DNA from: Polyangiales bacterium
GTDB lineage: Bacteria > Myxococcota_A > Polyangia > Polyangiales > Ga0077539
Reading direction: 5' to 3'
DNA length: 64,000 nt
NCBI GenBank assembly: GCA_046351535.1
Contig: JAXLYG010000005.1
Span: forward strand, 101,334-165,333
Shown: positions 316 through 41,411 of the stretch, piece after piece
Layout of the letters: each line of letters starts with the position of its first letter
Numbering within the stretch: position 1 is the first letter of the stretch
Made by a program: the position numbers and the translations under genes
The notes under the pieces: generated by a model
What the model was told of the DNA's origin: nothing
Seen by the model: only the letters and a program-made list of their open reading frames with translations
Databases searched by the model: none

Positions 316-1463
316 GCCGCGATCCCCGTGACGGACTGACCGAGCACGAGCGTGTGGATGTCGTGCGTGCCCTCGTAGGTGATCACCGTCTCGAGGTTCA
401 GGAGGTGGCGCGAGATCGGGTACTCGTAGGTGATCCCGTTCCCGCCCAGGATGTCGCGGCACTTACGAGCAGTCTCGAGCGCCATGTAGACGTTGTTGCG
501 CTTGGCGAGCGAGACCTGGTCGGGCCTCATCTTCTTCGCCTCCTTCAGCTTGCCGAGGCGCCAGGCGACGAGCTGCGCCTTGGTGATCTCGGTGAGCATG
601 TCCGCGAACTTCGCCTGGACGAGCTGGTAGCCCGCGATGGGGCGTGAGAACTGGACCCTCGTCTTCGCGTAGTCGACCGCGCACTCGAAGCAGGCTTCGG
701 CCGCGCCGATGACGCCCCAGGCGATGCCGTAGCGGGCCTGCGTGAGGCAGCTCAGCGGACCCTTGATCCCTTCGACGCCGGGCATCAGCGCGCTCTCGGG
801 GACCTCGACGTCCTCGAGGATCAGCTCGCTCGTCACAGAGGCCCGCAGCGAGAACTTCCGCTCGATCTTCAGGGCGGTGAAGCCGGGGGTGTTGGTGGGA
901 ACCACGAAGCCCCGGATCACGCCGTCGAGCTTGGCCCACACGATCGCCACGTCGGCGAGGTTGCCGTTGGTGATCCAGCGCTTGGTGCCGTTGAGCTTGA
1001 AGCCGTTGGCCGTGCGCTCCGCGCGGGTGATCATCCCGCCGGGGTTCGACCCGAAGTCGGGCTCCGTGAGTCCGAAGCAGCCGACGGCCTCGCCCGAAGC
1101 GAGCTTCGGGAGCCAGGTCGTGCGGTGCTCCTCGGAGCCGAACGCATAGATCGGGTACATCACCAGGGCGCCCTGGACCGAGCAGAACGACCGCACGCCC
1201 GAGTCGGCGCGCTCGAGTTCCTTCATCACCAGGCCGTAGGCGACGTCGCCCATGCCCGCGCAGCCGTACTTCTCGGGCAGCGTCGCCCCGAGCACGCCGA
1301 GCTTGCCGAACTCGGGGATGAGGTCCGACGGAAAGGTCCCCTCTTCGTAGTGCTTCGAAATGCCCGGAAGCACTCGCGCATCCACGAACGCGCGGACGTT
1401 GTCGCGCACCATCCGCTCCTCTTCCGTGAGGAGCGAGTCGATGTCATAGAAGTCGACGGACAT
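282..1463 (-). CDS. gcdH: glutaryl-CoA dehydrogenase (acyl-CoA dehydrogenase family)
   Basis: 393-aa ORF with acyl-CoA dehydrogenase N, middle and C domains. The GLTEPDFGSNPGGMITRA segment resembles the GCDH signature. Its 3' end overlaps the cyclophilin gene convergently by 34 nt. Confidence 0.8.
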   Translation of the reverse strand: MSVDFYDIDSLLTEEERMVRDNVRAFVDARVLPGISKHYEEGTFPSDLIPEFGKLGVLGATLPEKYGCAGMGDVAYGLVMKELERADSGVRSFCSVQGALVMYPIYAFGSEEHRTTWLPKLASGEAVGCFGLTEPDFGSNPGGMITRAERTANGFKLNGTKRWITNGNLADVAIVWAKLDGVIRGFVVPTNTPGFTALKIERKFSLRASVTSELILEDVEVPESALMPGVEGIKGPLSCLTQARYGIAWGVIGAAEACFECAVDYAKTRVQFSRPIAGYQLVQAKFADMLTEITKAQLVAWRLGKLKEAKKMRPDQVSLAKRNNVYMALETARKCRDILGGNGITYEYPISRHLLNLETVITYEGTHDIHTLVLGQSVTGIAAYDAGPIPSSR

Positions 1464-1587
1464 GGGATCTCCTCGCAGGCGGCGCTGTCATGCTCGCCGC
1501 CTCTTGCGAGGGCAATCCATATCGGCCCTGCACCCCGCGCCGCAAGGGCGTCCATTGGGTACATCGTTGAATGGTTGAAATACGAAA

Positions 1588-1630
1588 GGCCACCTTTCTC
1601 TCGCGAGAAGGGTGGCCCTCGTATTTTTCC
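1588..1630 (-). terminator. stem-loop terminator candidate immediately 3' of tRNA-Ala
   Basis: Near-perfect inverted repeat GGCCACCTTT / AAGGGTGGCC (about 10-bp stem, 10-nt loop). It is flanked by T-rich runs on both strands (TATTTTT on plus, TTTCGTATTT on minus). Confidence 0.4.
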
Positions 1631-1631
1631 C

Positions 1632-1706
<75 letters not shown>

Positions 1707-1981
1707 GGAAGGGACGCGAAAGAAACCACGGGGGAGCGTTCCGGTCAAGGTTCTTTTTGCGACCCTACACATTTCTCTCCCGAGCCCCCGCCCACGCGTC
1801 CCTCAGCACACCAGAAAGAGCTTGGAATTCATGTACTTCCAACACACACCGTTGCGATTTTTGCGCGGAACGGACATATGTCGCGAGCGTGACGCTTGTG
1901 TCGTGCGGCGGGATGTGGCACTCGCGCCCCCCGCCGTGGGCAACCAACATACGCCCCCCCGATGAGGAGGAGTGCTTCTTC

Positions 1982-2746
1982 ATGGCGAGCCGCGAATCGA
2001 TCGACGAGAAGCTCAAGAACCTCGAAAACCTGCTGGCCGTGCAGGATGAGCGCATCCTGGCGAAATTCCAGGAGCAGGTAGACATGTCGTGGATCTATCA
2101 CGACACGGCACTCGAGGGCTCCGTGCTCTCGTTCCACGAGCTCAAGAGCGCGATCGACAAGGACGTCGTCTCCGACGTGTCGTTGATCCCCACGTACGAC
2201 GAGATCCGCGCCCACAAGGCCGCGATCGATTTCGTGCGTGAGACCGCGGGCGCGCGCAAGAAGGTGCCCATCACCCTCGAGCTCTTGAAGAAGCTCCAGG
2301 AGATGGTCTCGCCCGACGACCCCGAGGTGAAAGATGGAACCTTCCGCAAGGAGACCCCCGTCCACCGGCTCTACTTCCACGACATCGCGGCCCCCGAGAA
2401 GATCGCGGGCGAGATGAAGAAGCTCGGCGAGTGGCTCGCCGACCCCGAGACCAAGAAGCTCTCGGCGCTGCGTATGGGCTCGAAGATCCACTTCAAGCTC
2501 ATGCAGATCTTCCCGTACACCCGCCACACGGGGAAGCTCGCGCGCCTCGCGATGAACCTCGTGCTCCTGCGCTCGGGGTATCCGCCGGCCATCGTCCACT
2601 CGACGGAGCGGCAGCGGTACTACGAAGCCCTCCGCGGCCCGAGCCTCCCGCTGCACAACCTCATGCTCGACTCGCTGGAGAACTCCATCGACAGCGCGAT
2701 CAAGCTCTTCTCCGAGGCCAACAGCGGCCGTCGCGCGCTCGCGTAG
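1982..2746 (+). CDS. Fic/Fido-fold family protein with a degenerate active-site motif
   Basis: Overall Fic architecture is present: SWIYHDTALEGSVLSFHEL, then IFPYTRHTGKLARLAMNLVLLRSGYPPAIV. The canonical HPFx[DE]GNGR motif is replaced by FPYTRHTGK. ATG at 1982 gives MASRESIDEK; the upstream part of the 1757..2746 ORF is not Fic-like. Confidence 0.6.
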   Translation: MASRESIDEKLKNLENLLAVQDERILAKFQEQVDMSWIYHDTALEGSVLSFHELKSAIDKDVVSDVSLIPTYDEIRAHKAAIDFVRETAGARKKVPITLELLKKLQEMVSPDDPEVKDGTFRKETPVHRLYFHDIAAPEKIAGEMKKLGEWLADPETKKLSALRMGSKIHFKLMQIFPYTRHTGKLARLAMNLVLLRSGYPPAIVHSTERQRYYEALRGPSLPLHNLMLDSLENSIDSAIKLFSEANSGRRALA

Positions 2747-2778
2747 CCTCTCTCAGCCTCTTCTCCCTCTCCCCCCCG

Positions 2779-3363
2779 TCAGCCGAGCTTCTCGAAGAGC
2801 CTCCGCGGCACGGCCTTGCCCGTGAGCGCGATGCGCTGCGTCCCCTGCTCGATCACCACGGCGACGGTCTCCATCGCGCGGAAGACCGCGTACCGACCGA
2901 CGCCCTCCCAGCGCCGCTCGACCTCGCCCGAAGGCGCGATCGCGCACGCGCCCTGCTCTACGGGGCGGAGCGTCATGCCCTGAAAGGGGATCTCGACGCC
3001 GGGCCACCCCATCGCCGCGAGCTTCTCGTCCGTGCGCAGCACATAGAGCGACTCGCCCTCGCGGGGAAACGCCAGCCAGCGCTCCTTGCCGCGCTCGGGG
3101 GCCGAGCACACGCGCATCGCGGCGCTCCCCTCGCGCATGAGCGCCAGCTCGCCCGAGAGCCAGTACTCGTCGCCCATGTGCAGCAGCACGTCGCCGACCT
3201 TGTACTCACCGGGACCCGCGGTCACCCGCTGCTCCTTGCGGGGCGGGCTGCGCGAAGGCTCCGCCTGATCGACCTTCGCCTCACGCCTCCGACGCCAGCG
3301 CGCCACCGCCGCCGCCCCGCCCGCTCCCATCGCCACCAGCAGTCCGATCGTGATCGGGTCCAT
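2779..3363 (-). CDS. hypothetical protein with an N-terminal transmembrane anchor
   Basis: 194-aa ORF whose N-terminus (ITIGLLVAMGAGGAAAVA) is hydrophobic and followed by an RRRR stretch. It packs tightly against thiE (2-nt gap). I recognise no family. Confidence 0.45.
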   Translation of the reverse strand: MDPITIGLLVAMGAGGAAAVARWRRRREAKVDQAEPSRSPPRKEQRVTAGPGEYKVGDVLLHMGDEYWLSGELALMREGSAAMRVCSAPERGKERWLAFPREGESLYVLRTDEKLAAMGWPGVEIPFQGMTLRPVEQGACAIAPSGEVERRWEGVGRYAVFRAMETVAVVIEQGTQRIALTGKAVPRRLFEKLG

Positions 3364-9964: not shown

Positions 9965-12529
<2,565 letters not shown>

Positions 12530-12598
12530 CTATCAGAACCCACAGCGGAATACAAGGACAGGGAATGTCTCTTGACCGCTTCGTCGGGAGCGCCTCGT

Positions 12599-13687
12599 TC
12601 AAGGGGCCGGGGTGACCTTCCCGTCGCTCACGTCGAAGCGCCTGGCGCGGGGGAGGAGGGCCGCGATGCCCGGGTCGGTGGTGGTCACCCACACCTGCGC
12701 GCCGAGCTTCGAGACCAGCTCGAAGAGCCGCTCGATGCGCTCGCGATCGAGCTCGCTCGACACGTCGTCGAGGAGGAGCGCGGGGGTGCTCTTCGTCCTG
12801 CTCTCGATGACGTGAAGCTCCGCGAGGCGCAGGGCCAGGGCGAGGGCGCGGGTCTGCCCCTGCGAGGCCACCACCCTGGCCGGTCGCGCGCCCCAGGTGA
12901 GCGTGAGGTCGTCGGCGTGGGGGCCGAAGAGGGTGGTGCGGCGCGCGAGGTCGTTCTGCACGCCGCCCGCGAGCATCGAGGCGTACGCGACCTGATCGCC
13001 GGGGGCCTTCGCGCGGTACGCCACGGAGATGATCTCGGGCGTGCGGGTGAGCGTGCCGAGGCTCTCCTGCGCGGCGTGGACGAGGTCGCCGACGACGGAC
13101 TCGCGGGCCCGCACCACGGCGCTCCCGTAGCGCGCGAGGGGGAAGTCGTAGGCCTGCACGGCGCGGAGGTTGGGGTGGCGCTCTCGCAGCAGCGCGTTGC
13201 GCGACCGCAGGGCCTTCGCGTAGCTCTTGAGGGCCTCGCCGTACCCATCCACCACGCGCACGAGGATGCGGTCGAGGAGCCTCCGTCGGATGTCGGGCGC
13301 GCCGAGCACGAGGTCGAGGTCGCCGGGCTGAAACACCACGCACGACGCTCCGCCGAAGTACTCGACCGCGCGCTCGGGGCGCTTTCCGTCGAGGAGGATC
13401 TCGCGGGCCGTGCGCGTGAGCTTGATGCGGTACTCGTGGGCGAGGGCCACGGACTCGACGCGCAGGAGAATCTGCGCGGCCTCGGCCTCGTGGCCCACGA
13501 GCTGCGCCCGCGTCGCGCCGCGGAACGACCGCAGCGAGGCCGCGTAGTCGATCGCCTCGAGGATCGACGTCTTGCCCTGACCGTTGGCGCCGAGGAGCAC
13601 GTTGGCGCGCGCGTCGGGGATGACACGCGCGCCCTGGAGGTTTCGAAAGCCTCCAGCGAAGAGCTCGGTGATTCGTACGGGGGTCAC
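12599..13687 (-). CDS. recF: DNA replication and repair protein RecF
   Basis: 362 aa with Walker A (LLGANGQGKTSILEAI) and the typical RecF signature. It sits between dnaN and gyrB. Confidence 0.9.
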   Translation of the reverse strand: MTPVRITELFAGGFRNLQGARVIPDARANVLLGANGQGKTSILEAIDYAASLRSFRGATRAQLVGHEAEAAQILLRVESVALAHEYRIKLTRTAREILLDGKRPERAVEYFGGASCVVFQPGDLDLVLGAPDIRRRLLDRILVRVVDGYGEALKSYAKALRSRNALLRERHPNLRAVQAYDFPLARYGSAVVRARESVVGDLVHAAQESLGTLTRTPEIISVAYRAKAPGDQVAYASMLAGGVQNDLARRTTLFGPHADDLTLTWGARPARVVASQGQTRALALALRLAELHVIESRTKSTPALLLDDVSSELDRERIERLFELVSKLGAQVWVTTTDPGIAALLPRARRFDVSDGKVTPAP

Positions 13688-13721
13688 GACCTGCGGCGCG
13701 GAGAGAGTGAGATCGAAGCGC

Positions 13722-14861
13722 TCAGATGCGCATGGGCATGATGACGCCGATGAAGTCGTTGCGTCCGACGGGGCGCACGACGCCGGGGTCGAGCTCGCCC
13801 GAGAGGTCGAGGGCGACGTCGTCGGTGACGAGCGCGTTGAGCACGTCGATGAGGTACTTGCTGTTGAAGCCGATGGTCACGTCGGGGCCCGTGAGCTCGG
13901 CGTCGAGCTCATCTTGTCCAGCGCCCACGTCGGGGTTCTCGCTCGACAGGATGGCCTTCGAACCGCTCATCGCGAGCTTCACGCCGCTGGTGCGGTCGGC
14001 GGCGACGAGCGACACGGCGCGGAGGGCGTCGAGGAAGGCGAGGCGGTTGATGCGCGCGCCGCGGTCGGTGCCCGTGGGGATGACCTGCTCGTACGAGGGG
14101 AAGGCCGCGTCGACGAGCTTGGAGCTGAGGGTCATCCCTTCGCGCTGAAAGAACACGGGGCCCTGCGAGCTGGCGGCGCCGACGGAGAGGGTGGCGGGTC
14201 CGGCCTCCTTGCGCTCGGCCTTGTCGGCGCGGACCTCGTCGACCATGCGCTTGACCTCGTGGATGCTCTTGGCGGGGATGAGGAGCTTGGAGGCCCCGCG
14301 CATCCCGGGGACGGTGCGCTCGGCCTTGGAGAGCCTGTGGCCGTCGGTGGTGACCATGCGCAGCGTCTCGCCCTGCATCTCGAAGAGGGCGGCGGCGAGG
14401 TGGGGCCGCGTGTCGTCGGTCGACATCGAGAACGAGGTGAGCGAGATGAGGTCGGCCAGGTCGTCGACGGGGATGGCCGTGAGGGGCGTCTTCCCGGGGT
14501 CGGGCATGGTGGGGAAGTCTTCGCCGGGCATCCCCGTGAGGTCGAAGCGGCGCTTGCCGGCCTTGAGCCTCGCGGTGAAGTTCTTCTCGACCGTGACGGT
14601 GATGTCTCCGTCGGGGAGGGCGCGCACCGTGTCGAAGACGTGCCGCGCGTGGAGGGCCACGGAGCCGGGCTTCTTCACCTCCGCGCGCATGGTGCCCGTC
14701 ACCGAGAGCAGCAGGTCGGTCGCTGCGAGGCGCACGCTCCCGCTCGCGTCGGCGGCGATCAGCACGTTGGCCAGGATCGGCATGGCGGACTTCTTGTCGG
14801 CCACGCTCTGCACTCGGCTGAGACCCTTCACGAAGTCCCGCTTGTTGACCACGAACTCCAT
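13722..14861 (-). CDS. dnaN: DNA polymerase III subunit beta (sliding clamp)
   Basis: 379 aa with a three-domain clamp pattern (MEFVVNKRDFVKGLSRVQSVADKK...ILANVLI). Located downstream of dnaA. Confidence 0.9.
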   Translation of the reverse strand: MEFVVNKRDFVKGLSRVQSVADKKSAMPILANVLIAADASGSVRLAATDLLLSVTGTMRAEVKKPGSVALHARHVFDTVRALPDGDITVTVEKNFTARLKAGKRRFDLTGMPGEDFPTMPDPGKTPLTAIPVDDLADLISLTSFSMSTDDTRPHLAAALFEMQGETLRMVTTDGHRLSKAERTVPGMRGASKLLIPAKSIHEVKRMVDEVRADKAERKEAGPATLSVGAASSQGPVFFQREGMTLSSKLVDAAFPSYEQVIPTGTDRGARINRLAFLDALRAVSLVAADRTSGVKLAMSGSKAILSSENPDVGAGQDELDAELTGPDVTIGFNSKYLIDVLNALVTDDVALDLSGELDPGVVRPVGRNDFIGVIMPMRI

Positions 14862-14904
14862 CTCGTCACGCTCCTGCGCTGAGGCTCTCAGGGGGTTGTT
14901 CCCT

Positions 14905-15148
14905 GCTCTTCTACTCTGTTGATAGGAGAAATGAATTTAGAAACAGTACACCGTACATAGATCCTGTGGAGACGGGGGGAAGCGTTGTAAGTACCCGTAA
15001 CTCCATCGGATTCGAAGTGGACAGCGGGAGGGACTCCAGGTGTGGACATCCTGCGGAGGGTCGGGAAGCCGGTTCGTCCACAGGGCCATCCACAGGGGAT
15101 GTCCCAGGGGGAGTTCACGGTGCCTTCCACAGGGTGATCCACAGGCGA
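14905..15148. promoter_or_regulatory. oriC candidate: AT-rich DUE-like stretch plus a DnaA-box cluster in the dnaA-dnaN intergenic region
   Basis: AT-rich stretch 14905-14960 (ttctactctgttgataggagaaatgaatttagaaacagtacaccgtacataga). At least six DnaA-box-like 9-mers with core TCCACAGG: 14961-14970 (minus), 15039-15050 (minus), TTCGTCCACAGG 15072-15083, CCATCCACAGG 15086-15096, CCTTCCACAGG 15122-15132 and GTGATCCACAGG 15133-15144. Confidence 0.6.
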
Positions 15149-15153
15149 GGGTC

Positions 15154-16761
15154 TCACGCTTCGCTGTCCGAGTGTTCAGTGTTCGGGTGCACCGTCGGAG
15201 GCTGGAACCCGAGCTTCACCGAGAGCGACTCGACGGTGCTCCGCAGCTCCGCGTCGTCGGGGAGGAGCTTCTCGATCCTTCGCACGGCGGACATCACGGT
15301 GGTGTGGTCCTTTCCGCCGAACTTCGCGCCGATCTGGGGGAACGACGTGCCGAGGTGGACGCGCGCGAGGAACATCGCGACCTGGCGCGCGATGGCGACC
15401 TCGCGGTGCCGGTCCTTGCCCGTGAGCTCCGACTGCTTGATGCGGTAGTGCTCGCAGACGGCGCGCTGCACGTCGTCGACGGTCACCACGGCGGGCCTCG
15501 CCCCGATGCGCAGGGTGTCCCTCACCATCGCCGTGTCGATGGAGGGGCGGCCCGAGATGTTGGCCTTGATGGCCAGCTTCATGAGCATGCCTTCGAGCTC
15601 GCGGACGCTGGTGTTCGCGGCGCCTGCGATGGCGAAGGCGGCGTCGTCGTCGAGGCGGACGTTCTCCTGCTCGGCCTTCTTCCGCAGGATCGCGACGCGG
15701 GTCTCGACCTCGGGGGTGTAGACCTCGGCGACGAGGCCCGAGCCGAAGCGCGACACGAGGCGCTCGGCCATGCCCTGGAGCTTCTGCGGGAGCACGTCGC
15801 TCGTGAGCACGATGGCGGCCTCGCGCTGGTAGAGCGCGTTGAACGTGTGGAAGAACTCCTCCTGCGTGCCCTCCTTCCCCGCGAGGAACTGCACGTCGTC
15901 GATGAGGAGCGCGTCGCACTGGTTGCGGTAGCGCGCGCGGAACTCGTCCATCTTCCGCTGCTGGATGGCCGCCACGTACTCGTTGGTGAAGGTCTCGGCG
16001 GAGACGTACACGATCCGCGCGTCGGGCTTCTGCTCGAGGATCTTGTGCCCCACGGCGTTGGAGAGGTGCGTCTTGCCGAGGCCCGTTCCGCCGCAGAGGA
16101 AGAGCACGTTGACCCGTCGGCCCGAGAGGTTCGAGAGGGCGAGGGCCATCGCGTGCGCGACCTGATTCGAAGGCCCGATCACGAACTGGTCGAAGGTGTA
16201 CTTGGGCGACAGGCCCGCGGAGAACGATCCCACCGCCGCACCCACGGAGGCTCCCACGGGGGCGGTGGCCGTGCGGGCCGCGGAGGGCTGTGAGGGCGCG
16301 TTGCGCGGGGCCACGGGGCGCTGCGACGGCTGCTGCGGGATCTGCGCGCTCTGGGTCTGCTGCGGCGGGTTCGGGAGCGTCGGCGCGACGATGCGTCCGA
16401 CGGGCTTCGGCGGAGACTTCGGCGCGGGCGAGAGCTTCGGCAGCGCGGCCATCGACACGACGCTCGCGGCCCAGTGCAGAGACCAGGGCTCGCCCGTCAC
16501 GATGCGGAGCTGCTCCTCGATGGCCGCGGTGTAGGCCTTCGAGACCCACTCGCGCGAGAAGTCGTTCGCGGCGCGGAGGAGGAGCACGCCCCCCGCGGCG
16601 TCGAGGGCCTCGATCGGTCGCAGGAGCTTGTCGATCATCTGCGCGCCGACCTTGCCCGAGAGGGAGGCGATCACCTTCTGCCAGAGCTCGTTCGCGTCGG
16701 GGTTCACGGGGGAAGATCTTTCGTCGCGTCGGCGCCCTTCCACAGGGTTATCCACAGGCAT
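15154..16761 (-). CDS. dnaA: chromosomal replication initiator protein DnaA
   Basis: 535 aa. N-terminus ELWQKVIASLSGKV, a Pro/Gln-rich linker, AAA+ Walker A (LFLCGGTGLGKTHL), sensor and box VII motifs, and C-terminal DNA-binding domain IV (KDRHREVAIARQVAMFLAR...GGKDHTTVMSA). Confidence 0.95.
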   Translation of the reverse strand: MPVDNPVEGRRRDERSSPVNPDANELWQKVIASLSGKVGAQMIDKLLRPIEALDAAGGVLLLRAANDFSREWVSKAYTAAIEEQLRIVTGEPWSLHWAASVVSMAALPKLSPAPKSPPKPVGRIVAPTLPNPPQQTQSAQIPQQPSQRPVAPRNAPSQPSAARTATAPVGASVGAAVGSFSAGLSPKYTFDQFVIGPSNQVAHAMALALSNLSGRRVNVLFLCGGTGLGKTHLSNAVGHKILEQKPDARIVYVSAETFTNEYVAAIQQRKMDEFRARYRNQCDALLIDDVQFLAGKEGTQEEFFHTFNALYQREAAIVLTSDVLPQKLQGMAERLVSRFGSGLVAEVYTPEVETRVAILRKKAEQENVRLDDDAAFAIAGAANTSVRELEGMLMKLAIKANISGRPSIDTAMVRDTLRIGARPAVVTVDDVQRAVCEHYRIKQSELTGKDRHREVAIARQVAMFLARVHLGTSFPQIGAKFGGKDHTTVMSAVRRIEKLLPDDAELRSTVESLSVKLGFQPPTVHPNTEHSDSEA

Positions 16762-17032
16762 GGGCGCACCGGTAGCGGTGCTGACTTTCGCCGGATCAGC
16801 TGCGTTTCGCGAGAAATCGACGAAGTTCGATCGGCGCCTCTGGAGCTCGCGCGGAGAAAATTGTCCACAGCCCCTCGCGCCCCGTGTTTGATCGGGCCGA
16901 CGGAGGGTGAAGGGGGCGGCGCGCGGGGGCGACTGGCGGGTGGGGCGGAGGTGACCGAACGGGGTTTTCCACAGCCCTGTGGATTCGCTGCCAGGAAATA
17001 GACGGCGGTCTCGCTGCCGTTATATGTCCACC
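16741..17032. promoter_or_regulatory. dnaA promoter/autoregulatory region with DnaA boxes
   Basis: GTTATCCACAGG overlaps the dnaA start (16748-16759). TTGTCCACAG at 16861-16870. Convergent pair TTTTCCACAG (16965-16974) and CTGTGGATTC (16978-16987). ATGTCCACC at 17024-17032. Confidence 0.55.
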
Positions 17033-17036
17033 CGCG

Positions 17037-17933
17037 ATGAACGCCCGACGCACGATCTCTACGTCCCTCGTGACGCTGGCCGCGACGATGACCCTGTCTT
17101 CGGCCGCGTACGCGCAGGTCGCGGGCGCGCCCGAGACGCCCACCACCACGCGCATGATGGCCCTCGGCGGCAACGCGCAGGCCGCGGCGCAGAGCACGTC
17201 GGGCGTGTTCTCGAACCCCGCGGCGATGAGCCTCGGGCGCGTCTATCACGTCGACTCGTCGATCCTGTTCGACCCGACGGTGAACCGCTGGGCCTTCGGC
17301 GGCACGGTGGCCGACACCACGCGCATGGTCAGCGCGTCGCTCTCGTACAACTACTCGCTGCTCGACGGGAGCGAGTCGCGGCACAACCACGACGTGCGCC
17401 TCGGGCTCTCGGTGCTGCTCACCGAGGGCGTCGCGCTCGGCGTGACCACCCGCTACATGAACTACGACGGCACGCAGACGACCAACACGCGGCTCGGCAC
17501 GGCGTACAGCGGGCTCACCGTCGACGTGGGCGCGGTGGTGCGTCCGGCGAGCTTCCTCACGCTGGCGGTGACGGGCTACTCGCTCACGAACCCCGACACG
17601 TCGCTCACGCCCATCTCCGTGGGTGGCGGCGTGGCGATCACGCCCGTCGACATCCTCAGCGTCATCGTCGACAACGTGTGGGACCTGCGCTCGTTCTCGG
17701 AGCCGCGCATGCGCCTCAACGGCGGCGTGGAGCTCATGCTCGGGCACATCCCCGTGCGCGCGGGCTACCTCTTCGACGACACGCGGCTCAACGGCCCGGT
17801 GCACACGGTCACGGGCGGACTCGGGTACCTCGACACGGCCTTCGGCGTCGAGGCGGCCATCCGTCAGGACGTGGCGGGGTCGAGCCAGACCACCCTGATG
17901 CTCAACATCCGGTACTTCTACCGAAGCATGTAG
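17037..17933 (+). CDS. outer-membrane beta-barrel protein (hypothetical)
   Basis: Signal peptide ending AAYAQ. Alternating amphipathic beta-strand pattern, Gly/Thr/Ser/Tyr-rich. The C-terminus ends ...LNIRYFYRSM, an aromatic OMP-like terminal strand. Confidence 0.5.
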   Translation: MNARRTISTSLVTLAATMTLSSAAYAQVAGAPETPTTTRMMALGGNAQAAAQSTSGVFSNPAAMSLGRVYHVDSSILFDPTVNRWAFGGTVADTTRMVSASLSYNYSLLDGSESRHNHDVRLGLSVLLTEGVALGVTTRYMNYDGTQTTNTRLGTAYSGLTVDVGAVVRPASFLTLAVTGYSLTNPDTSLTPISVGGGVAITPVDILSVIVDNVWDLRSFSEPRMRLNGGVELMLGHIPVRAGYLFDDTRLNGPVHTVTGGLGYLDTAFGVEAAIRQDVAGSSQTTLMLNIRYFYRSM

Positions 17934-24765: not shown

Positions 24766-25029
24766 ATGCGCTCCCTCGTCGTCGCGTGTGTGGTCTTCGC
24801 GCTCTCGCTCAACGCCTGCAAGCGTCGGCCTCCGCCCGTGCCCGAGCGCACCACCGCGGGGACGAGCCTCAACGTCGGCGCCACCGCGATGACCCCCGAG
24901 GTGCACATCAACCAGCGCGACGGCGGGAGCGGCGCGGGCGGGATGAACATCCAGATCGGCAACGTGGGCGTGCAGCTCCCCGGCGAGAACGAGCGCGGCG
25001 CCGCGGCGGAGCGAGAGGCCGAGCACTGA
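24766..25029 (+). CDS. small Gly-rich lipoprotein (87 aa), hypothetical
   Basis: Signal peptide plus lipobox (VVFALSLNAC). Starts 25 nt after the preceding lipoprotein gene. Confidence 0.4.
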   Translation: MRSLVVACVVFALSLNACKRRPPPVPERTTAGTSLNVGATAMTPEVHINQRDGGSGAGGMNIQIGNVGVQLPGENERGAAAEREAEH

Positions 25030-25142
25030 CCCCGCGCCGAGGCCCTCGAAGGCCTCGCCCACTCCCACGCGCGCACGAAGTTGACGGAAGCGCGGCGGTG
25101 TCGTCTGGCACCCTGCTCCGCGCACGAACAGCGTCATTTTTC

Positions 25143-25205
25143 ATGCGTAAAATCCGCATGCCGTCTCAGAAAAACCCGTTCTGAACACATCTATCTAGAG
25201 AGATG
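25143..25205. promoter_or_regulatory. AT-rich leader with two palindromes upstream of the DUF4280 gene
   Basis: ATGCGtaaaatCCGCAT at 25143-25159 and CATCTatctagagAGATG at 25188-25205, in an unusually AT-rich ~80-bp stretch for this genome. A GAGGAGGA ribosome-binding site lies 5 nt upstream of ATG 25314. Confidence 0.35.
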
Positions 25206-25313
25206 TCGCGCACGCGAGCGTGGGATCACGCCCGGCGATCGTTCGGTCATCTCCCGATCTCGACGCGGCGTCGCCCGCGGACGGGAGCGCGTTCCCTCAC
25301 GAGGAGGAGCACG

Positions 25314-25730
25314 ATGAGAAGACTGGTACTTCATGGCGCCACGCTCGGATGCACGCACGGCTCGTCGACAGCGTTCCTGTCGATCGCCCCGGGCCGCCGC
25401 GCGGGCGCTCTCGTTGCCACCGTGCGCGACCACGCGTCGCTCATGAACATCGCCCCCTTCGGCTTGTGCAGCTCGCTTTCGAACCCCCGCGTCGCGGCCG
25501 CCACCGCCGCGTCGCGCGGCGATCTCACGCCGCAGTTCTGCGTCCCCCACACGCCAGGCCCCTGGACGCAGTCCGATCCCGCGACCGAGGTCGACGGCGT
25601 CGAGGCGCTCCACGAGGGCGCGACGTGTCGTTGCGCGTGGGGCGGGCGCATCAGCGTGAAGTCGTCCGAGGTCTCCGCGAGCGACGAGCGATCGAGCGCG
25701 AGCGATGATCGTTCGAACGCGAGCTTGTAG
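25314..25730 (+). CDS. DUF4280 (PAAR-like) domain protein, standalone, with a Ser/Asp-rich C-terminal tail
   Basis: LVLHGATLGCTHGSS...MNIAPFGLCSSLSNPRVAAATAASRGDLTPQFCVPHTPGPWTQ...CRCAWGGRISV fits the DUF4280 pattern (NI.PFG.C.S..NP.VAAATAA...LTP..C.P.T..W...C.W.G.I). Strong ribosome-binding site. Tail KSSEVSASDERSSASDDRSNASL. Confidence 0.65.
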   Translation: MRRLVLHGATLGCTHGSSTAFLSIAPGRRAGALVATVRDHASLMNIAPFGLCSSLSNPRVAAATAASRGDLTPQFCVPHTPGPWTQSDPATEVDGVEALHEGATCRCAWGGRISVKSSEVSASDERSSASDDRSNASL

Positions 25731-25740
25731 CGCCGCACGC

Positions 25741-28700
25741 TCAGCGCGCGGGCAGCGAGACGATGTGATCGAGGTGGAGCACCGGCGCCGGTGACCCCGC
25801 CGCGTCGAGGTCGAAGTAGATCACCACGTCGCCCGCGGGGATGCGGATGGGCACGCGCGACTCCTCCCAGCGCGGTGAGAGCGGGATCGTCGCCACGACG
25901 CGCGCCCCGAGCCGCAGCGGGACGCGCACCGGCGGACCGTCGTCGCGGCGCGCGCGGATCACCATGAGCCTCAAGCCTCCGCGCTGCGAGTAGAAGGTCA
26001 CGGGGAGCCTCCCCCCGTGGGCCTTTCCGATGCAGCTGTGGGCGCCGAGGTAGCGCCAGCCGAGGGTGTCCTCGTGGGGGCCGCAGGACTCGAACGCGTC
26101 GGGGGTGATCTCGACGGTGCGCGCGTCGAAGCCCTCGATGCGAGGCCCCACCACGCCGAGCGCGCCGAGGGCCTCGGCCGCGTAGCGCTCCGCCCGCGTG
26201 TGACGGATCGTGCTCAGGATCAGCGGGACGGCGCGTCGATCGCCGAGCATGCCGAGGGCCGCGATGGCGTTGGCGCGCGCGTCGTCGGTGGGGTCGTTGA
26301 TGGCCGTGCGCGCGAGCAGTTCGAAGAGGCTCGGGTCGCGCATCTGACCGAGCGCCAGCACCACCTGATACCGCACGTGATCGTCGGGGAAGATGGTCAT
26401 CAGGGGCTCGATCGCGCGCGGATCCGCGAGCGTGCCGAGCGCGCGGATCGCGTCGATCACCTGCGACTCCTCGGGGGACCACAGCGTCTCGATGAGGGCG
26501 TCGACGGCGGCGTGGTCGCCGAGGCGGGCGAGGGCCAGCGCCGCGCGTCGCCGGAGCAGCGGGTCATCGCTCGTCACGAGGTCTCGGAGGAGGGGCGCGG
26601 CGGAGGCGTCTCCCGCGGCGCCGAGGGCCACGGCGGCGGCGTTGCGCACGGCGGCGGAGCGGTCTCGCAGGATCGGTCGCAGCGTGTCGATGAGCGAGCG
26701 GCGCGCGAAGCTCGCGAGGAGCTCGACGGCCTCGGTGCGCTCCTGCTCCGAGGCCCTGGGGTCACGCACGATCTCGGTGAGCCCGGGGATGGCCGCGCGG
26801 TCTCCGACGCGTGCGCGCGCCACGGCGCCGCGCGCGGTTCCGCGGTCTGCGAGGGACTCGAGCCACGCGGTCATGTCGGCGTGGAGCGACTCGCGCATCG
26901 CGAGCTCGGTGCCCGCGAGGTTGCGCCGCTCGCCGGGGTCGGCCGTGAGGTCGAAGAGCTCGTAGACGCCGAAGGTGAGGTCTGCGACGAGCTTCCACTG
27001 GCCGCGGCGCACCATCTTGCGGCTGTTGACCGTCGAGAACACGGGGGGAGAGTCGACGCCCGGTGTGGGCGGGCGGAGCATCCATCCCCGGAGGTCGCGC
27101 CCTCGCATCGTGGGCGCGGGCCGCGCGCCGGCGAGGGCCGCGAGCGTGGGCGCCACGTCGACGAGCTCCACGGGCGCGGTCACCCGCTGCGCGGTGAGTC
27201 CCGGCGCCGAGATCACCAGCGGCACCCTCACCTGCTCTTCGTAGAGCGTCGAGCCGTGATAGACGCCGCCGTGGTCGCCGAACTCCTCGCCGTGGTCCGC
27301 GGTGACGGCCACCACGAGCTCGCGCGCGAAGACGCGGCGCGCGTGGGTGAGCACGCGTCCCATCGCGGCGTCGATGTGCGAGACCGCGTCGTCGTACTGC
27401 GCGACGGGCGTCGGGCCGCTGCCCTGATAGGGCGCGTGGGCGTCGAAGAAGTGCACCCACATGAGGCTCGGGGCCTCGCCCCTCCGGACGATGTCGTCGA
27501 TCTCGCCGATGGCCGCGGCGGCCTGCTCGTCGGCGTTGCGGTCGACGTGCGTGGCGCGCGCGAAGCCGAAATCGTGCTCGCGGTAGCCCGTGAGGCGCTC
27601 TCCCTCGGTGAAGAAGATGCCCGTGGTGAAGAGCGCGGCGGTCTCGCGTCCGTTGGCGCGCATCACGTCGGCGAGCGTGGCGAGGGGCTGCGGCTGACCG
27701 AGCGCGAGCGTCTCGTGGAGGTACTCGCCCGTGTGCAGCGACGAGAGCGAGTAGCTCGAGTGCGGGGCCTGCGCGTAGGTGTTCACGAAGACCACGCCCT
27801 GCGCGGCGAGGCCGTCGAGGGTGGGCGTGAGCGAGCGCCCCGCGCGCGTGCGTCCGAGGCGGTCGGCCCGCATCGCGTCGACGGTGAAGAGGAACACGTG
27901 CGCCCCGGGGAAGCTCGGCGCGTTGACGTTGAGGTCGGCGTGTCCCGCGCGCTCTCGCGCGTAGCGGGCGCGGCGCAGGGCGAGCGAGTCGACGGCGCCG
28001 GTGGCCTCGGGCCTGCGCGCGACGGAGGCGACGGCGAAGGCCGCGTGACGCACGAAGGGGGCGTGGACGCCGAAGACCTCGGCGCGCACGTTGGGCCAGC
28101 GATCGAGGGCGCCCCAGGCCCACGGGGCCGCGAGGGCCGCGACGATCCCGGCGATGGCCGCGGCGCCCGGGAGCGAGCGGACGATCCACCACGCGGCGGG
28201 CGTGAGGGCCGCGACGGCGAAGGCGTTGGCGAGCAGCGTCGCGACGCCGAGGCCCGTGTGCAGGTACTCGTAGAGCCTCGGAAAAACACGGTGATCGAGG
28301 CCGTGCAGCGCCCAGCCCGCGAAGAGCGAGACCGCGCCGATGAGCGCGCGCTGCCGCACGGGGCGCGACGGGAGCGTCATGGCGAAGCGGCGGAGCCCCG
28401 CGAGCGCGAAGGCGCACACGGTCACGAGCACCACCGCCGTGAGCGGCTGGAGGAGCCACTGCATCGGGAGGCGCTTCATGCGTCCGCCCGTGAAGAGCGC
28501 GTGGGCCACGGACGCGAGGGGGAGCGCGACGAGCGCGGCCATGCGGACGGGCGCGCGGCGCTCCCACCGCGCGAGGAGCGCGTCGAGCGACGAGACCGTC
28601 GCTGAGAGCAATGCGCCCACGGCGTAGCCCCCGAGGAGGAGCACCGCGGCCAGACGCGCGCGATCGACGCCGGGCGCGAGCCAGAACACCGTGCTCGCAA

Positions 28701-28821
28701 GGTCGGCCTGACCCGAGAGCGTCCCCGCGACGGCGCCGATGAGGAGCGCCCTCGCCACGACGAAGCGCGGTGGCGTGGTCTCGATCACCGCCATGCGTGG
28801 CGCTGATTGCGCCCGTTGCAT
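25741..28821 (-). CDS. large membrane-anchored sulfatase-like (alkaline-phosphatase superfamily) protein with C-terminal HEAT repeats
   Basis: N-terminal ~330 aa hold multiple TM helices. Central sulfatase-like domain (LFTVDAMRADRLG...VFVNTYAQAPHSSYSLSSLHTGEY...VTADHGEEFGDHG) lacks the Cys/Ser-x-P-x-R FGly motif. About 8 HEAT-like repeats follow (AVRNAAAVALGAAGD, PLLRRRAALALARLGD and so on). The ORF track's start at 28860 overlaps tRNA-Cys, so I use ATG 28821 (MQRAQS); 28794 is an alternative. Confidence 0.55.
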   Translation of the reverse strand: MQRAQSAPRMAVIETTPPRFVVARALLIGAVAGTLSGQADLASTVFWLAPGVDRARLAAVLLLGGYAVGALLSATVSSLDALLARWERRAPVRMAALVALPLASVAHALFTGGRMKRLPMQWLLQPLTAVVLVTVCAFALAGLRRFAMTLPSRPVRQRALIGAVSLFAGWALHGLDHRVFPRLYEYLHTGLGVATLLANAFAVAALTPAAWWIVRSLPGAAAIAGIVAALAAPWAWGALDRWPNVRAEVFGVHAPFVRHAAFAVASVARRPEATGAVDSLALRRARYARERAGHADLNVNAPSFPGAHVFLFTVDAMRADRLGRTRAGRSLTPTLDGLAAQGVVFVNTYAQAPHSSYSLSSLHTGEYLHETLALGQPQPLATLADVMRANGRETAALFTTGIFFTEGERLTGYREHDFGFARATHVDRNADEQAAAAIGEIDDIVRRGEAPSLMWVHFFDAHAPYQGSGPTPVAQYDDAVSHIDAAMGRVLTHARRVFARELVVAVTADHGEEFGDHGGVYHGSTLYEEQVRVPLVISAPGLTAQRVTAPVELVDVAPTLAALAGARPAPTMRGRDLRGWMLRPPTPGVDSPPVFSTVNSRKMVRRGQWKLVADLTFGVYELFDLTADPGERRNLAGTELAMRESLHADMTAWLESLADRGTARGAVARARVGDRAAIPGLTEIVRDPRASEQERTEAVELLASFARRSLIDTLRPILRDRSAAVRNAAAVALGAAGDASAAPLLRDLVTSDDPLLRRRAALALARLGDHAAVDALIETLWSPEESQVIDAIRALGTLADPRAIEPLMTIFPDDHVRYQVVLALGQMRDPSLFELLARTAINDPTDDARANAIAALGMLGDRRAVPLILSTIRHTRAERYAAEALGALGVVGPRIEGFDARTVEITPDAFESCGPHEDTLGWRYLGAHSCIGKAHGGRLPVTFYSQRGGLRLMVIRARRDDGPPVRVPLRLGARVVATIPLSPRWEESRVPIRIPAGDVVIYFDLDAAGSPAPVLHLDHIVSLPAR

Positions 28822-28833
28822 CGGAGGTTCACC

Positions 28834-28907
28834 GGAGGTGCGGATGGGATTTGAACCCACGTATCACGGTTTTGCAAACCGTTGCCTGGCCACTTGGCTA
28901 CCGCACC
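28834..28907 (-). tRNA. tRNA-Cys (anticodon GCA)
   Basis: Reverse complement is GGTGCGGTAGCCAAGTGGCCAGGCAACGGTTTGCAAAACCGTGATACGTGGGTTCAAATCCCATCCGCACCT. Anticodon stem-loop ACGGT-TTGCAAA-ACCGT, T-loop TTCAAAT, CC encoded. Confidence 0.85.
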
Positions 28908-29954: not shown

Positions 29955-30104
29955 GGGCGCGGAGCTATACCGCGAGATCGGGGAGCGTGGTCTGCGATGT
30001 CGTCAACGGTCGCGCGCGTCGCGTTTGCGCTTCACCGCCCTTCGCGCCCGTTGGTACCGTGCGCTCTCCATCTGCCTCGAAGCCCACAAGGAGCAGCGAC
30101 GACA

Positions 30105-38266: not shown

Positions 38267-39775
38267 ATGACCGACCCTTCGAAGAGCCCCGTGTCTCGCC
38301 TCGCGCTCCTCGTCATCACCCTCGCGGGCTGCGGAAACTCAATCGCAGAGCCCTCGCCCGACGCGAGCGCGCAGGTCGACGTGCGACCCGCGAGCGACGT
38401 CCTTCCCTCGTCCGATGTCACCGCCTCCGATGTCACGGTCACCGACGTCACCGTCACCGACGTCACGGTCACCGACGCGCCGTCCTCCGACGCGCCCTCG
38501 ACGGGACGTCATCCCAACTTCATCGTCTTCCTCGCCGAGGCCAACGGGTGGACGAGCACCTCGGTGCTCCAGGACGAGGCGATTCCCGCGTCGCGCAGCG
38601 GCACGATCCAGACGCCGAGCCTCGACCGCATCACCGCACAGGGGATGCGCTTCTCGAACTTCTACGCCCCGTCGCCGCGGTGCATGCCGACGCGCGCGAG
38701 CCTCATCAGTGGGATCTCGCCCGCCGCGCTGCACATGACCTTCATCCCCGAGGCGCGCAACGACGGCGCGGCGACGGGCAACGTGGTCACGCCCACGACC
38801 ATCACCACGCTCCCTGTCGAGACGCCGACGGTGGCGTCGCTCCTCCGCGCGGCGGGGTACGGCACGGCGCACTTCGGCAAGTGGCACGCGGGCAACATTC
38901 ACCCGTCGATGTACGGCTTCGACATGAGCGACGGGCCGACGGCCAACCGTGGACCCGACAACGTCGACCACCCCAACCCCGCGCAGGCGTACGCGATCGC
39001 CGACAGGGCCATCGCGTTCCTCAACACGCAGGCCGCGGCGCGGCGACCGTTCTACCTCCAGGTGTCGAGCTACGGCGGCAAGGACGAGGTCGACTCGCGG
39101 CCCGAGACCTACGCGATGGCCGCCGCGAGGCTCCCCGGCGCGAACCCGCGCGACATCGCGCTCGCCGCCGTGCAGATGGAGATGGACATCAACATCGGCC
39201 GCGTCCTCACGCGCCTCGACGAGCTGGGGCTCACGGGCGACACGTACGTGTTCTTCACGTCGGATCACGGCGCGCAGGGCCCCTCGTCGAACCCGCCGCT
39301 CCAGGGCAGCAAAGGGACGGTCTGGGAGGGCGGCATCCGCGTTCCCCTCTTCGTGCGCGGACCCAACGTGCGCATGGGGGTCTCATCGCGCGTGCGCACC
39401 ACGGGGGTCGACCTGCTCCCGACGATCATGTCGCTCGCGAACGTCACCGCGCTCCCTGCCCGTCTCGAAGGCGGCAACCTCGCGCCGCTTCTCCTCGGAA
39501 CCGTCAACGAGGTGCGCCGTTCGCGCGACGAGCTCGTCGTCCACTTTCCCCACTACGACATGGACCCGCTCGGCCCCGCGTCGACGATCCTCTTCGGCGA
39601 CTACAAGCTCACGCGCTACTACGAGACCGGCTCGCAGCGGCTCTACAACGTCGTGACCGACTTCGCCGAAGCGACGGACCTCGCCCCGCGCGACCCGGCT
39701 CGTGTGACCGACATGGCCCGCCGCCTCGACGAGTACCTCGCCGCGGTCAACGCCCAGATCCCCACGCGTCGCTGA
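38267..39775 (+). CDS. arylsulfatase-family (Cys-type, FGE-dependent) lipoprotein
   Basis: Lipobox LAGCG. VTVTD repeats. Sulfatase signature SPRCMPTRASLISG (C-x-P-x-R) and a second motif GKWH. Confidence 0.8.
   Translation: MTDPSKSPVSRLALLVITLAGCGNSIAEPSPDASAQVDVRPASDVLPSSDVTASDVTVTDVTVTDVTVTDAPSSDAPSTGRHPNFIVFLAEANGWTSTSVLQDEAIPASRSGTIQTPSLDRITAQGMRFSNFYAPSPRCMPTRASLISGISPAALHMTFIPEARNDGAATGNVVTPTTITTLPVETPTVASLLRAAGYGTAHFGKWHAGNIHPSMYGFDMSDGPTANRGPDNVDHPNPAQAYAIADRAIAFLNTQAAARRPFYLQVSSYGGKDEVDSRPETYAMAAARLPGANPRDIALAAVQMEMDINIGRVLTRLDELGLTGDTYVFFTSDHGAQGPSSNPPLQGSKGTVWEGGIRVPLFVRGPNVRMGVSSRVRTTGVDLLPTIMSLANVTALPARLEGGNLAPLLLGTVNEVRRSRDELVVHFPHYDMDPLGPASTILFGDYKLTRYYETGSQRLYNVVTDFAEATDLAPRDPARVTDMARRLDEYLAAVNAQIPTRR
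38411..38480. repeat. tandem repeats encoding VT(A/V)(S/T)D units in the sulfatase gene
   Basis: gtcaccgacgtcacggtcaccgacgtcaccgtcaccgac. Confidence 0.6.
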
Positions 39776-41411
39776 TCGTCGGGTCCCACCGCCTCGCGCG
39801 CTCCAACCACATCGCGGCCTCGCGGTCTCTCCCCTCGACGCGCGCGAGCTCGTGCTGTCGCAGCGCGCCCGCGGGCTGATCGCAGGTCACGTCGAGCCAC
39901 TGCACGAGCGCCCGCCGCGCCTCGCGATCACCGCGGAGCGTCTCGCGCGTCGCCCACGCGCCGTCGACGACCACGACCCGAGACGCGTCGTGCCGCAAGC
40001 GCGTGAGCGCGTCGACGTGCGTCCCGTGCGAGACGCTCCGCGCGGCGGCGGCGCGCACCCACGGAGACCGATCTCGCAGCGCCGACGTGAACACCTCGTC
40101 GGCCTCGGGACGATCCGCCCACGGCGCGAGCATCGCGACGAGCGAGGCCCTCCACGCGTCGTTGTCCTCTCGCATCGCCAGCGACGCGAGCTCGCGGAGC
40201 ACCGAGGTATCGCCGCGCATCGCGCTCGCCACGACCCGCGCGCGACGGCGGACGGCGCCGTGGTGTCCCTCACCGAACCACGCCGTGACGTTCTCTTCGG
40301 CCCAGGTCACAGGGCGATCGGAGTGACAGCCGGAGCACGCGTTGGGCACGCCGAGCGCTCGCGTGAGCGTCGGATCGGGGATCGTGAAGCCGTGGTCCCT
40401 CCTCCGATCGCGCTGCATGTAGGTCGCCGCGGGCATGTGGCAGTTGACGCAGCGGGCGCCGTCGCTCGCCGCGGGGTGATGCGCGTGCGTCGCGTCGATG
40501 ACAGGAGCGCCTCGCGCGCCGTTGCCGTGGCACGTGAGGCAGAGTTCGTCGCGGGTGATGGGGGCGCGCAGTCTGCCCGAATGGGGATCGTGACAGTCGT
40601 TGCAGGAGACGCCGCGCTGTCCCATGCGGCTCAGCGAGAGGGAGGCGTATTCGAAGTCCTCGTCGGCGCACTGTCCGTCGGGGTGATACGCGCCGGGCGT
40701 GTCGGCGAGCGTGAGGCGGTAGTGGTCGTCGAAGCGCTCGCCCGCGCGGAAGGCTCCGCTCAGCTCCTCGCGTCGCGCGTGGCAGCTCGCGCAGGTGTCG
40801 GCGACGCGCGCTCGCCACGGGGGATTCTGCGAGCGTCGATGGCCCTCGGGCATCGCGCCGTGGCACTGCGCGCAGGCGACGCCTGCGGCGCTCCACGCGC
40901 TGCGGTACGCGTCGGAGCGCGCGTCGTAGCCCTTCACGAACCCGGTCGTGTGGCAGGCGGCGCACCAGGCGTTCCAGTTCATCCCGCGCTGCGTCCAGTG
41001 GCTCCACTCGTGGGGCGCCGGGCGGTCGGCGCCGAAGATCGAGAACCACTGTTTTTGCGATGGATCCCACGCGGGGTCGAGCACCTGCACGCGGCCGTCG
41101 GCGCGCGCGACGAGGTACTGCCGCAGGGGTTCGACGGCGATCACCGCGCGGAGGGGTTCACTGCGCAGCTCGGGCGAGAGCGCTCTCAGTGCCTCGGTGT
41201 CGCGCGCGTCGATGGGGCGCTGCGCCCTCGCGTGCTGCGATGCCTGCCAGGCTTCGTATTGCGCGCGGTGACAGGGCGCGCAGGGCCGCGCGACATCGGG
41301 CGCGGCGGAGCCCGGGGCCCCCACGTCGGTGAAGCGCGCGGGAGGCTCAGGGGTCGCGCGTCGACACCCCAGGGCCACGGCGAAGGCGAGGAGCGATCGC
41401 GCGAGGTTCAC
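39747..41411 (-). CDS. octaheme c-type cytochrome with a C-terminal HEAT-like repeat region
   Basis: Eight CxxCH motifs (CAPCH, CAACH, CAQCH, CASCH, CNDCH, CLTCH, CVNCH, CSGCH). Signal or lipobox LLAFAVALGC. Probable GTG start at 41411 preceded by GGAG; the ORF-track start is 41606. The 3' end overlaps the sulfatase gene by 29 nt. Confidence 0.65.
   Translation of the reverse strand: MNLARSLLAFAVALGCRRATPEPPARFTDVGAPGSAAPDVARPCAPCHRAQYEAWQASQHARAQRPIDARDTEALRALSPELRSEPLRAVIAVEPLRQYLVARADGRVQVLDPAWDPSQKQWFSIFGADRPAPHEWSHWTQRGMNWNAWCAACHTTGFVKGYDARSDAYRSAWSAAGVACAQCHGAMPEGHRRSQNPPWRARVADTCASCHARREELSGAFRAGERFDDHYRLTLADTPGAYHPDGQCADEDFEYASLSLSRMGQRGVSCNDCHDPHSGRLRAPITRDELCLTCHGNGARGAPVIDATHAHHPAASDGARCVNCHMPAATYMQRDRRRDHGFTIPDPTLTRALGVPNACSGCHSDRPVTWAEENVTAWFGEGHHGAVRRRARVVASAMRGDTSVLRELASLAMREDNDAWRASLVAMLAPWADRPEADEVFTSALRDRSPWVRAAAARSVSHGTHVDALTRLRHDASRVVVVDGAWATRETLRGDREARRALVQWLDVTCDQPAGALRQHELARVEGRDREAAMWLERARRWDPTISDAWGSGR

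Follow-up and report, generated by a model that had tools for sequence, protein, structure and literature searches.

Background

DUF4280 is a PAAR-like domain with four conserved cysteines (Rigard et al. PMC5014421; Lays et al. PMC5349215). A published survey found that DUF4280 types work with both type VI secretion systems (T6SS) and extracellular contractile injection systems (eCIS), and that only about 37% of PAAR genes adjoin core loci (PMC8651086). The present work concerns a standalone DUF4280 gene, together with the AT-rich leader that precedes it, in a stretch of 64 kb from a Polyangiales bacterium (assembly GCA_046351535.1, contig JAXLYG010000005.1). This whole stretch, with 71% GC overall, is called the window below; positions are counted from its first nucleotide, and coordinates of features are collected in Table 1.

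Several described systems resemble this locus in part. Single-domain DUF4280 or 'PAAR_H' proteins, such as Fte1 (Fjoh_3275) of Flavobacterium johnsoniae and Pte3 of Bacteroides fragilis, belong to the same Pfam family, are about 130 residues long, contain the four cysteines, have a predicted conical fold and carry no toxin domain; they are often encoded apart from the core apparatus. The window protein differs from them in that its clade shares no more than 51% identity with any other homologue found, has a deletion of four residues around position 30, bears a tail rich in Ser and Asp, and has no adjoining VgrG, adaptor or effector gene. IglG, the T6SS PAAR-like protein of Francisella, also has a DUF4280 domain with four cysteines, which bind Fe or Zn and are each needed for T6SS secretion, as determined by experiment (PMC5014421). 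Unlike IglG, the window protein lacks the N-terminal alpha-helical extension that binds IglF: its domain begins at residue 5, and the IglG subfamily NF041248 scored 17.2 bits against a cut-off of 200.

Among solved structures, the best structural and sequence match is BtpeA (Bfe5) of Bacteroides, a DUF4280-DUF3289 protein (PDB 9jg8 and 9jg9) in which the DUF4280 cone caps VgrG. BtpeA has 608 residues including a toxin domain, whereas the window protein is the cap alone, and the two are 21% identical. Canonical PAAR proteins (PF05488), such as VCA0105 of V. cholerae, c1882 of E. coli and gp5.4 of phage T4, have the same overall cone shape and the role proposed here; they contain three PAAR motifs and a zinc site of three His and one Cys, in contrast to the four cysteines that are the conserved putative ligands of the window protein. 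No match to PF05488 was found at E<=0.1 in the Pfam search of this protein. Finally, T6SS bacteria possess orphan islands of VgrG, effector and PAAR genes. This layout is matched by the 69% identical orthologue of the window gene, beside the same sulfatase-HEAT gene, whereas the window lineage has the tip gene only, with genes for putative lipoproteins of 470 and 87 residues upstream instead.

The DUF4280 protein and its predicted fold

The ORF (open reading frame) at 25314-25730 encodes a genuine DUF4280 protein. In the Pfam search, PF14107 scored 75.2 bits (gathering score 26.3; E=7.6e-21), the match spanning residues 5-117 of the protein and profile positions 1-106 of 109. The original prediction, made from the DNA letters, had recognized a PAAR-like DUF4280 protein of 138 residues, and the profile search it proposed agrees, as do the cysteines and the predicted fold; the accession it named, PF13665, is that of DUF4150, a different PAAR-like family (PMC8651086). 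Cysteines C13, C52, C76 and C107 do not vary in either the 13-sequence or the 122-sequence alignment, and they align with the four of 9jg8_B, the only solved DUF4280 domain. The NIAPFG, NPxVAAATAA and WGG motifs are intact.

A longer in-frame ORF from the ATG at 25203 (175 residues) was considered as the true gene and ruled out, the 37 upstream codons being unconserved. Every homologue begins MRRLV or MKRLV and the ribosome-binding site (RBS) precedes 25314, supporting the start there; in this Shine-Dalgarno sequence, GAGGAGGAG, the AGGAG core is invariant across all orthologous leaders.

Orthologues are labelled here by protein identity to the window protein: strains at 99% (including L019), L001 (87%), L003 (83%), L018 (78%), L017 (72%) and L016 (69%). 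Beyond the domain, the protein has only a tail of about 21 residues, predicted to be disordered, with no toxin or enzymatic domain on either end, which sets it apart from specialised PAAR effectors. The tail was correctly described at the outset as Ser/Asp-rich: 12 of the 23 residues of KSSEVSASDERSSASDDRSNASL are Ser or Asp, and the AlphaFold model gives a predicted local distance difference test (pLDDT) value below 50 at residues 125-133. Such a tail is confined to orthologues of at least 83% identity and is variable or absent in others; its nucleotide identity to L003 is just 54%.

The fold was modelled with AlphaFold (AF2) from the 122-sequence alignment, giving a pLDDT of 83.3 and a predicted template modelling score (pTM) of 0.75; an earlier model from 13 sequences was unusable (pLDDT 49). 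The best Foldseek matches were 9jg8_B and 9jg9_B, the DUF4280 effector bound to the T6SS VgrG spike (E=6.6e-4, probability 1.00). Next came the phage baseplate chain 9f4b_BA and the PAAR protein T4 gp5.4, with template modelling (TM) scores by target (TMt) of 0.54 and 0.51, both with non-significant E-values. A conical PAAR-like beta fold is thus predicted, on a moderate match.

The family assignment and the reading as a PAAR-like spike tip follow from the Pfam match, the four conserved cysteines, the predicted fold and the literature. The gene product is probably a functional single-domain spike tip, an orphan serving a contractile injection system whose genes lie elsewhere in the genome; we hold this with good confidence. 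If the protein works like IglG and its DUF4280 counterparts in Bacteroides, its four cysteines would bind a metal ion at the tip of a small cone of beta structure. The cone would dock on the blunt end of a VgrG trimer, sharpening the spike, and would be fired with it by the distant apparatus.

A role apart from injection systems, perhaps that of a small metal-binding protein rich in cysteine, might be suggested by the housekeeping and envelope genes that surround the gene in conserved synteny and by the lack of a partner gene in 64 kb. However, every informative homologue context involves VgrG or eCIS genes, the fold and cysteines match a VgrG-capping domain, and no other role of DUF4280 appears in the DUF4280 literature examined; such a role is extremely unlikely.

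Contexts of orthologues and relatives

The close orthologues (99%, 87%, 83% and 72%) come from activated-sludge and other metagenomes and share one gene order: the 282-residue membrane protein (minus strand), a protein of about 460-470 residues (plus), a small ORF (plus; 87 residues, or 66 in the 72% orthologue), DUF4280 (plus) and sulfatase-HEAT (minus). Orthologue L016, from a metagenome-assembled genome (MAG) of Polyangiales, retains the sulfatase-HEAT gene downstream and occupies the same chromosomal spot. Upstream, it has a fragment of 318 residues (L016 2-958) and then an ORF of 611 residues (955-2790, plus strand), whose stop overlaps the DUF4280 start. The 318-residue fragment resembles the C-terminus of VgrG (Gp5_trimer_C, E=1.8e-4; DUF2345, E=2.6e-4) and matches VgrGs of Polyangium and Sorangium in tblastn (3e-11 to 1e-6). 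The window gene probably descended from a VgrG-effector-tip island like that of L016, at the same chromosomal position.

The 611-residue ORF of L016 contains GFSFGG, a GxSxG motif, and shows a faint esterase match (NF033854, E=0.012), with no significant match in Pfam, NCBIfam or PDB searches; it is a candidate lipase or esterase effector of a new family. The 470-residue protein of the window was considered as a relative of this ORF and rejected, as the two have no similarity.

In the Myxococcota MAG that holds the 87% orthologue, two more DUF4280 genes (L069, L073) lie beside three full-length VgrG genes (Phage_GPD, E=8e-71, 3e-64 and 1e-58). The original prediction had proposed a search of the genome for spike loci and further DUF4280 copies; in relatives, such loci were seen both here and among eCIS-linked homologues at 47-48% identity. 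The VgrG islands of this sister MAG also encode LysM plus PG_binding_1 proteins of 223 and 209 residues beside the VgrG and DUF4280 genes (L069 1934-2605 and 10403-11032), and a 528-residue protein with a weak DUF6345 match. These may be spike-associated cell-wall-binding accessories or effectors.

A survey of relatives covered the best 80 loci in species-representative genomes, with VgrG counted within 10 kb. VgrG was found at 32 loci and eCIS sheath or tube genes at 14, and 36 had neither by the probes used. Four of these 36, all from Polyangia, were checked; they are true orphans, with genes for kinases, dehydrogenases, transporters or glycolysis around them. In a Polyangiaceae MAG (L062 9509-10381), two standalone DUF4280 genes lie in tandem, flanked by genes for a Ser/Thr kinase and a short-chain dehydrogenase, and VgrG is absent within 10 kb.

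Orphans of this family occur commonly in Polyangia, so the window gene is ordinary in this respect. The first reading of the DNA had treated a standalone copy as unusual, which does not hold: a profile search gave at least 8000 homologues at E<=1e-8, and among the matches listed nearly all are standalone proteins of about 129 residues. The adjoining VgrG, T6SS or eCIS genes that are usual, though not obligatory, for the family were found at L016, L069, L073 and L007-L012, and are lacking in the window.

These contexts bear on which apparatus is served. It is most likely one that uses a long T6SS-type VgrG. The protein might instead tip an eCIS, that is, a phage-tail-like particle: the nearest homologues outside the clade are linked to eCIS genes. 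P0008 (47%) immediately precedes genes for sheath, gp19 tube and DUF6760 proteins and has eCIS_core (DUF4157) proteins in its vicinity, and P0012 (48%) lies near an eCIS_core-Ntox15 toxin. Sheath or tube genes at 14 of the 80 related loci, and the use of DUF4280 types by both machines (PMC8651086), point the same way. However, in the closest informative contexts, L016 and the sister-MAG paralogues, the VgrGs are long (about 850 residues) and carry Gp5_trimer_C with traces of DUF2345, sheath and tube genes are absent within 10 kb, and no eCIS genes were found in the window. An eCIS tip is therefore the less likely choice, although it keeps more weight than the other alternatives considered here.

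The delivery context had been called unknown, which holds for the window itself but has been largely resolved by L016, the sister MAG and the eCIS-linked homologues. Several points nevertheless weigh against the reading as a tip that serves a remote apparatus. Genes for VgrG, Hcp, sheath, baseplate, adaptor, toxin or immunity proteins, or with other T6SS, eCIS or phage-tail domains, were not found among about 45 genes scanned in the window, as had been noted for VgrG/Hcp and toxin/immunity partners from the start. The partner apparatus is presumed from the sister MAG and not from the source genome beyond the window. The VgrG label of the L016 fragment comes from sub-threshold Pfam matches and tblastn, and the fold match is moderate (TM about 0.5, root-mean-square deviation 4.4 Å). 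On the regulatory side, a sigma-70 scan of the leader gave no consensus site, and separate transcription, though probable, is deduced solely from the 284-nt gap, the hairpin and the conserved core.

As a spike tip, the protein adds a divergent, lineage-specific clade from an uncultured activated-sludge lineage of Myxococcota/Polyangiales to the very large DUF4280 family, and indicates that tips persist as selected orphan genes after separation from the VgrG-effector module. Beyond annotation, this matters little.

Evolution of the gene

The DUF4280 gene is under purifying selection, since the ratio of non-synonymous to synonymous substitution rates (dN/dS) is 0.16-0.33. Its synonymous rate is high: dS is 0.22-0.47, versus 0.02-0.15 in the neighbouring genes. 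Nucleotide identity to L001 and L003 is 87-90% in the coding sequence against 94-98% in the flanking genes, with about 50% in the leader flanks. GC content at third codon positions (GC3) is 86%, versus 93-95% in the neighbours.

Faster evolution than the neighbours and a lower GC3 might also be expected of the leftover of a decayed VgrG-effector-tip island whose function has been lost, and the gene does stand alone, whereas its L016 orthologue sits in a VgrG-containing module. Such a remnant is improbable. The low dN/dS, the intact cysteines and motifs and the retention of ORF, RBS and leader core in six orthologues down to 69% identity speak for constraint; raised dS points to allele exchange and not merely to relaxed constraint; and orphans of this family are, as described above, common in Polyangia.

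Allele exchange is also visible in the leader. In strain L019, the 5' part of the leader (L019 9695-9800, against window 25030-25115) is the allele of the 87% lineage (L001), and the rest is of the window type; this leader is a recombination mosaic inside the intergenic region. From the higher dS, the lower GC3 and the mosaic leader of L019, gene and leader appear to behave as a small exchanging cassette that diverges faster than its very conserved neighbourhood. The much faster evolution and recombination of gene and leader than of their flanks may be of some further interest.

The AT-rich leader

The leader is the gap of 284 nt at 25030-25313. Its GC content falls to 42.5% in an 80-nt window, as against 71% for the stretch as a whole, and this is the joint lowest value found. 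The original prediction had stressed its AT-richness, which is confirmed, and had named an ordinary value for intergenic regions of this genome as a ground for refutation. By its 60-nt minimum, the leader is second only to the dnaA-dnaN spacer among 27 intergenic regions; seven of the 27 dip below 50% GC, and the trough is therefore extreme yet of an ordinary kind.

Conservation of the leader is concentrated in a core of about 90 nt (25115-25206) that is 90-91% identical to L001 and L003, as against about 48-57% for the leader flanks. This core is a candidate promoter/operator region. The orphan gene would thus have its own RBS and probably its own promoter within the AT-rich leader. On the 5' side, the GC-rich hairpin CGAGGCC-N6-GGCCTCG, whose hairpin-forming sequence is kept with changes in L003 and L017, may separate the transcription unit of the DUF4280 gene from the 87-residue gene; it fails the T-run rule of the terminator scan.

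Candidate promoter elements were inspected individually. In an otherwise hypervariable part of the leader, the 12-mer AGTTGACGGAAG recurs unchanged in L003, L017, L018 and most 99% strains, with one G>T change in L001 and L019. No conserved -10 element was found in the orthologous leaders 16-19 nt downstream of its TTGACG (25081-25086). TAAAAT (25148-25153) was discarded as a -10 element, having by eye a poor -35 element; TGGCAC at 25106 was discarded as a sigma-54 site (wrong spacing, unconserved); and an extracytoplasmic function (ECF)-type promoter, GAAC...CGTC, did not fit in spacing. The Myxococcus LexA box (CTRHAMRYBYGTTCAGS) was matched at 13 of 17 positions on the minus strand.

Two palindromes, followed by the RBS GAGGAGGAG, had been reported in the original prediction. 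All are present, and a third inverted repeat, TCAGAA-N7-TTCTGA, had been missed. Relative to Markov resamples, the leader shows a modest excess of inverted repeats (P about 0.01-0.03). Palindrome 2 (ACATCTATCT/AGAGAGATGT) is unique in the window, which contains 39 palindromes of comparable 10/1 quality. The prediction had taken the leader to point to tight transcriptional control; exerted through the two palindromes, such control is unproven. The arms of palindrome 1 are polymorphic among the 99% strains (A/G at 25144) and are lost in L017; the symmetry of palindrome 2 is degraded in L003 (a 1-nt insertion plus ATGT>AAGT) and lost in L017 and L018. It is the core of about 90 nt, and neither palindrome, that is conserved.

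The best conserved block of the leader is 25166-25194, to which GTTCTGAAC belongs. TCAGAAAAACCCGTTCTGAACACATCTAT, the most stable stretch of the leader, shows no change among orthologues of at least 83% identity, and GTTCTGAA persists even at 72%. The left arm of TCAGAA-N7-TTCTGA is altered in L017, uncompensated.

Three consecutive hairpin-forming repeats in a putative 5' untranslated region suggest an alternative in which the leader acts as RNA, through a riboswitch, attenuator hairpins or translation of the upstream ORF (uORF) of 13 codons, and not as DNA sites. The uORF is kept in close orthologues, and the A>G polymorphism in palindrome 1 would preserve a G-U pair in RNA. However, no Rfam family reached its gathering score (the sole match, RT-13, had 23.9 bits against 69.1), the fold z-score of the leader RNA is -1.16 with 27 of 200 shuffles folding equally well, and RNAalifold gives an unfavourable covariation term (+6.1), with pairs of the hairpins either invariant or broken in L017 and L018. 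A conserved uORF peptide is unlikely because the substitutions are non-synonymous (K>E, PS>SL>AG). A structured RNA or leader peptide was rejected on these four grounds, the leader having none of the marks of a cis-regulatory RNA, and we give an RNA-level role very little weight.

The leader motifs occur only at orthologous positions in the window and in 104 fetched loci, so that no regulon is visible there, and they are absent upstream of the sister-MAG paralogues L069 and L073. A metagenome scan for AAAAWCYCRTTCTGAASACAT gave no further orthologues or regulon; its seven matches were dismissed as chance, lying on unrelated contigs of 32-54% GC (against 71%) with no DUF4280 gene.

It is conceivable, although doubtful, that the gene and its leader of about 280 nt form a strain-variable recombining cassette in which the core, with GTTCTGAAC and the neighbouring repeats, serves as operator for a regulator or silencer specific to the lineage, by which the tip is switched on independently of the VgrG islands. 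If this were true, strains would fit a common injection apparatus with differing tips, each under its own control, which might for instance determine compatibility or kin discrimination. The residual interest of the locus lies in this core, which is conserved yet matches no known promoter, operator or RNA family.

Features and neighbouring genes

Table 1. Positions of the DUF4280 gene, its leader elements and neighbouring genes in the window
Feature	Position	Strand	Description
DUF4280 gene	25314..25730	+	standalone PAAR-like protein, 138 residues; ATG at 25314, stop ending at 25730
Shine-Dalgarno sequence GAGGAGGAG	25301..25309	+	4 nt 5' of the ATG, read from the sequence
Ser/Asp/Glu-rich C-terminal tail	25665..25727	+	about 21 residues, predicted disordered, lineage-specific
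Conserved AT-rich core	25115..25206	+	about 90 nt, candidate promoter/operator region; holds all three inverted repeats
Inverted repeat ATGCG-N7-CGCAT (palindrome 1)	25144..25160	.	opens the 13-codon uORF MRKIRMPSQKNPF (25144-25185)
Inverted repeat TCAGAA-N7-TTCTGA	25166..25184	.	right arm inside GTTCTGAAC
Near-perfect 20-bp palindrome ACATCTATCT/AGAGAGATGT (palindrome 2)	25187..25206	.	10-nt arms, 1 mismatch
Conserved block AGTTGACGGAAG	25079..25090	+	contains TTGACG (-35-like)
GC-rich hairpin CGAGGCC-N6-GGCCTCG	25038..25057	+	just past the stop of the upstream 87-residue gene; terminator-like, no T-run
Sulfatase-HEAT gene	25741-28860	-	membrane sulfatase of 1017-1039 residues with HEAT repeats; convergent with the DUF4280 gene, 10 nt between stops
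tRNA-Cys	28834-28907		beyond the sulfatase-HEAT gene as seen from the DUF4280 gene, at a distance of 3.1 kb
Polytopic membrane protein, 282 residues	22453-23301	-	two genes from the DUF4280 gene

The neighbours differ somewhat from their first description. The tRNA-Cys gene had been placed on the same side of the sulfatase-HEAT gene as the DUF4280 gene, whereas it lies beyond that gene. A membrane protein with a GxGD motif had been named as a neighbour and putative intramembrane protease. The 282-residue protein does carry AVDLW ... GFGDVVF ... PALPALG, in the order D / GxGD / PAL found in intramembrane aspartyl proteases of the presenilin/SPP type; it stands two genes away, however, and has no sequence match in Pfam, NCBIfam or PDB. 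It is syntenic across all close relatives. Searches of the same three databases returned nothing significant for the upstream neighbours of 470 and 87 residues.

Elsewhere in the window, a second sulfatase-domain gene is located at 38267-39775 (plus strand), followed by a multihaem cytochrome gene (39747-41144) with a sub-threshold HEAT match. Just past tRNA-Cys, strain L019, whose sequence near the DUF4280 locus is about 100% identical, has an insertion between genes for proteins of 306 and 262 residues (L019 14652-16560, against window 29955-30104). It encodes an NgoMIV-type restriction endonuclease and a C5 DNA methylase, both absent from the window.

The genes gyrB, recF, dnaN and dnaA, characteristic of an origin gene set, are found at 9965-16707, all on the minus strand (origin region 9965-17069). 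DnaA-box-like sites are present upstream of dnaA, at 16748, 16861 and 16965, and at 15135. Of all intergenic regions, the dnaA-dnaN spacer (14862-15153) is the poorest in GC, with 36.7% in 60 nt, and is therefore likely to be the replication origin (oriC) with its DNA unwinding element.

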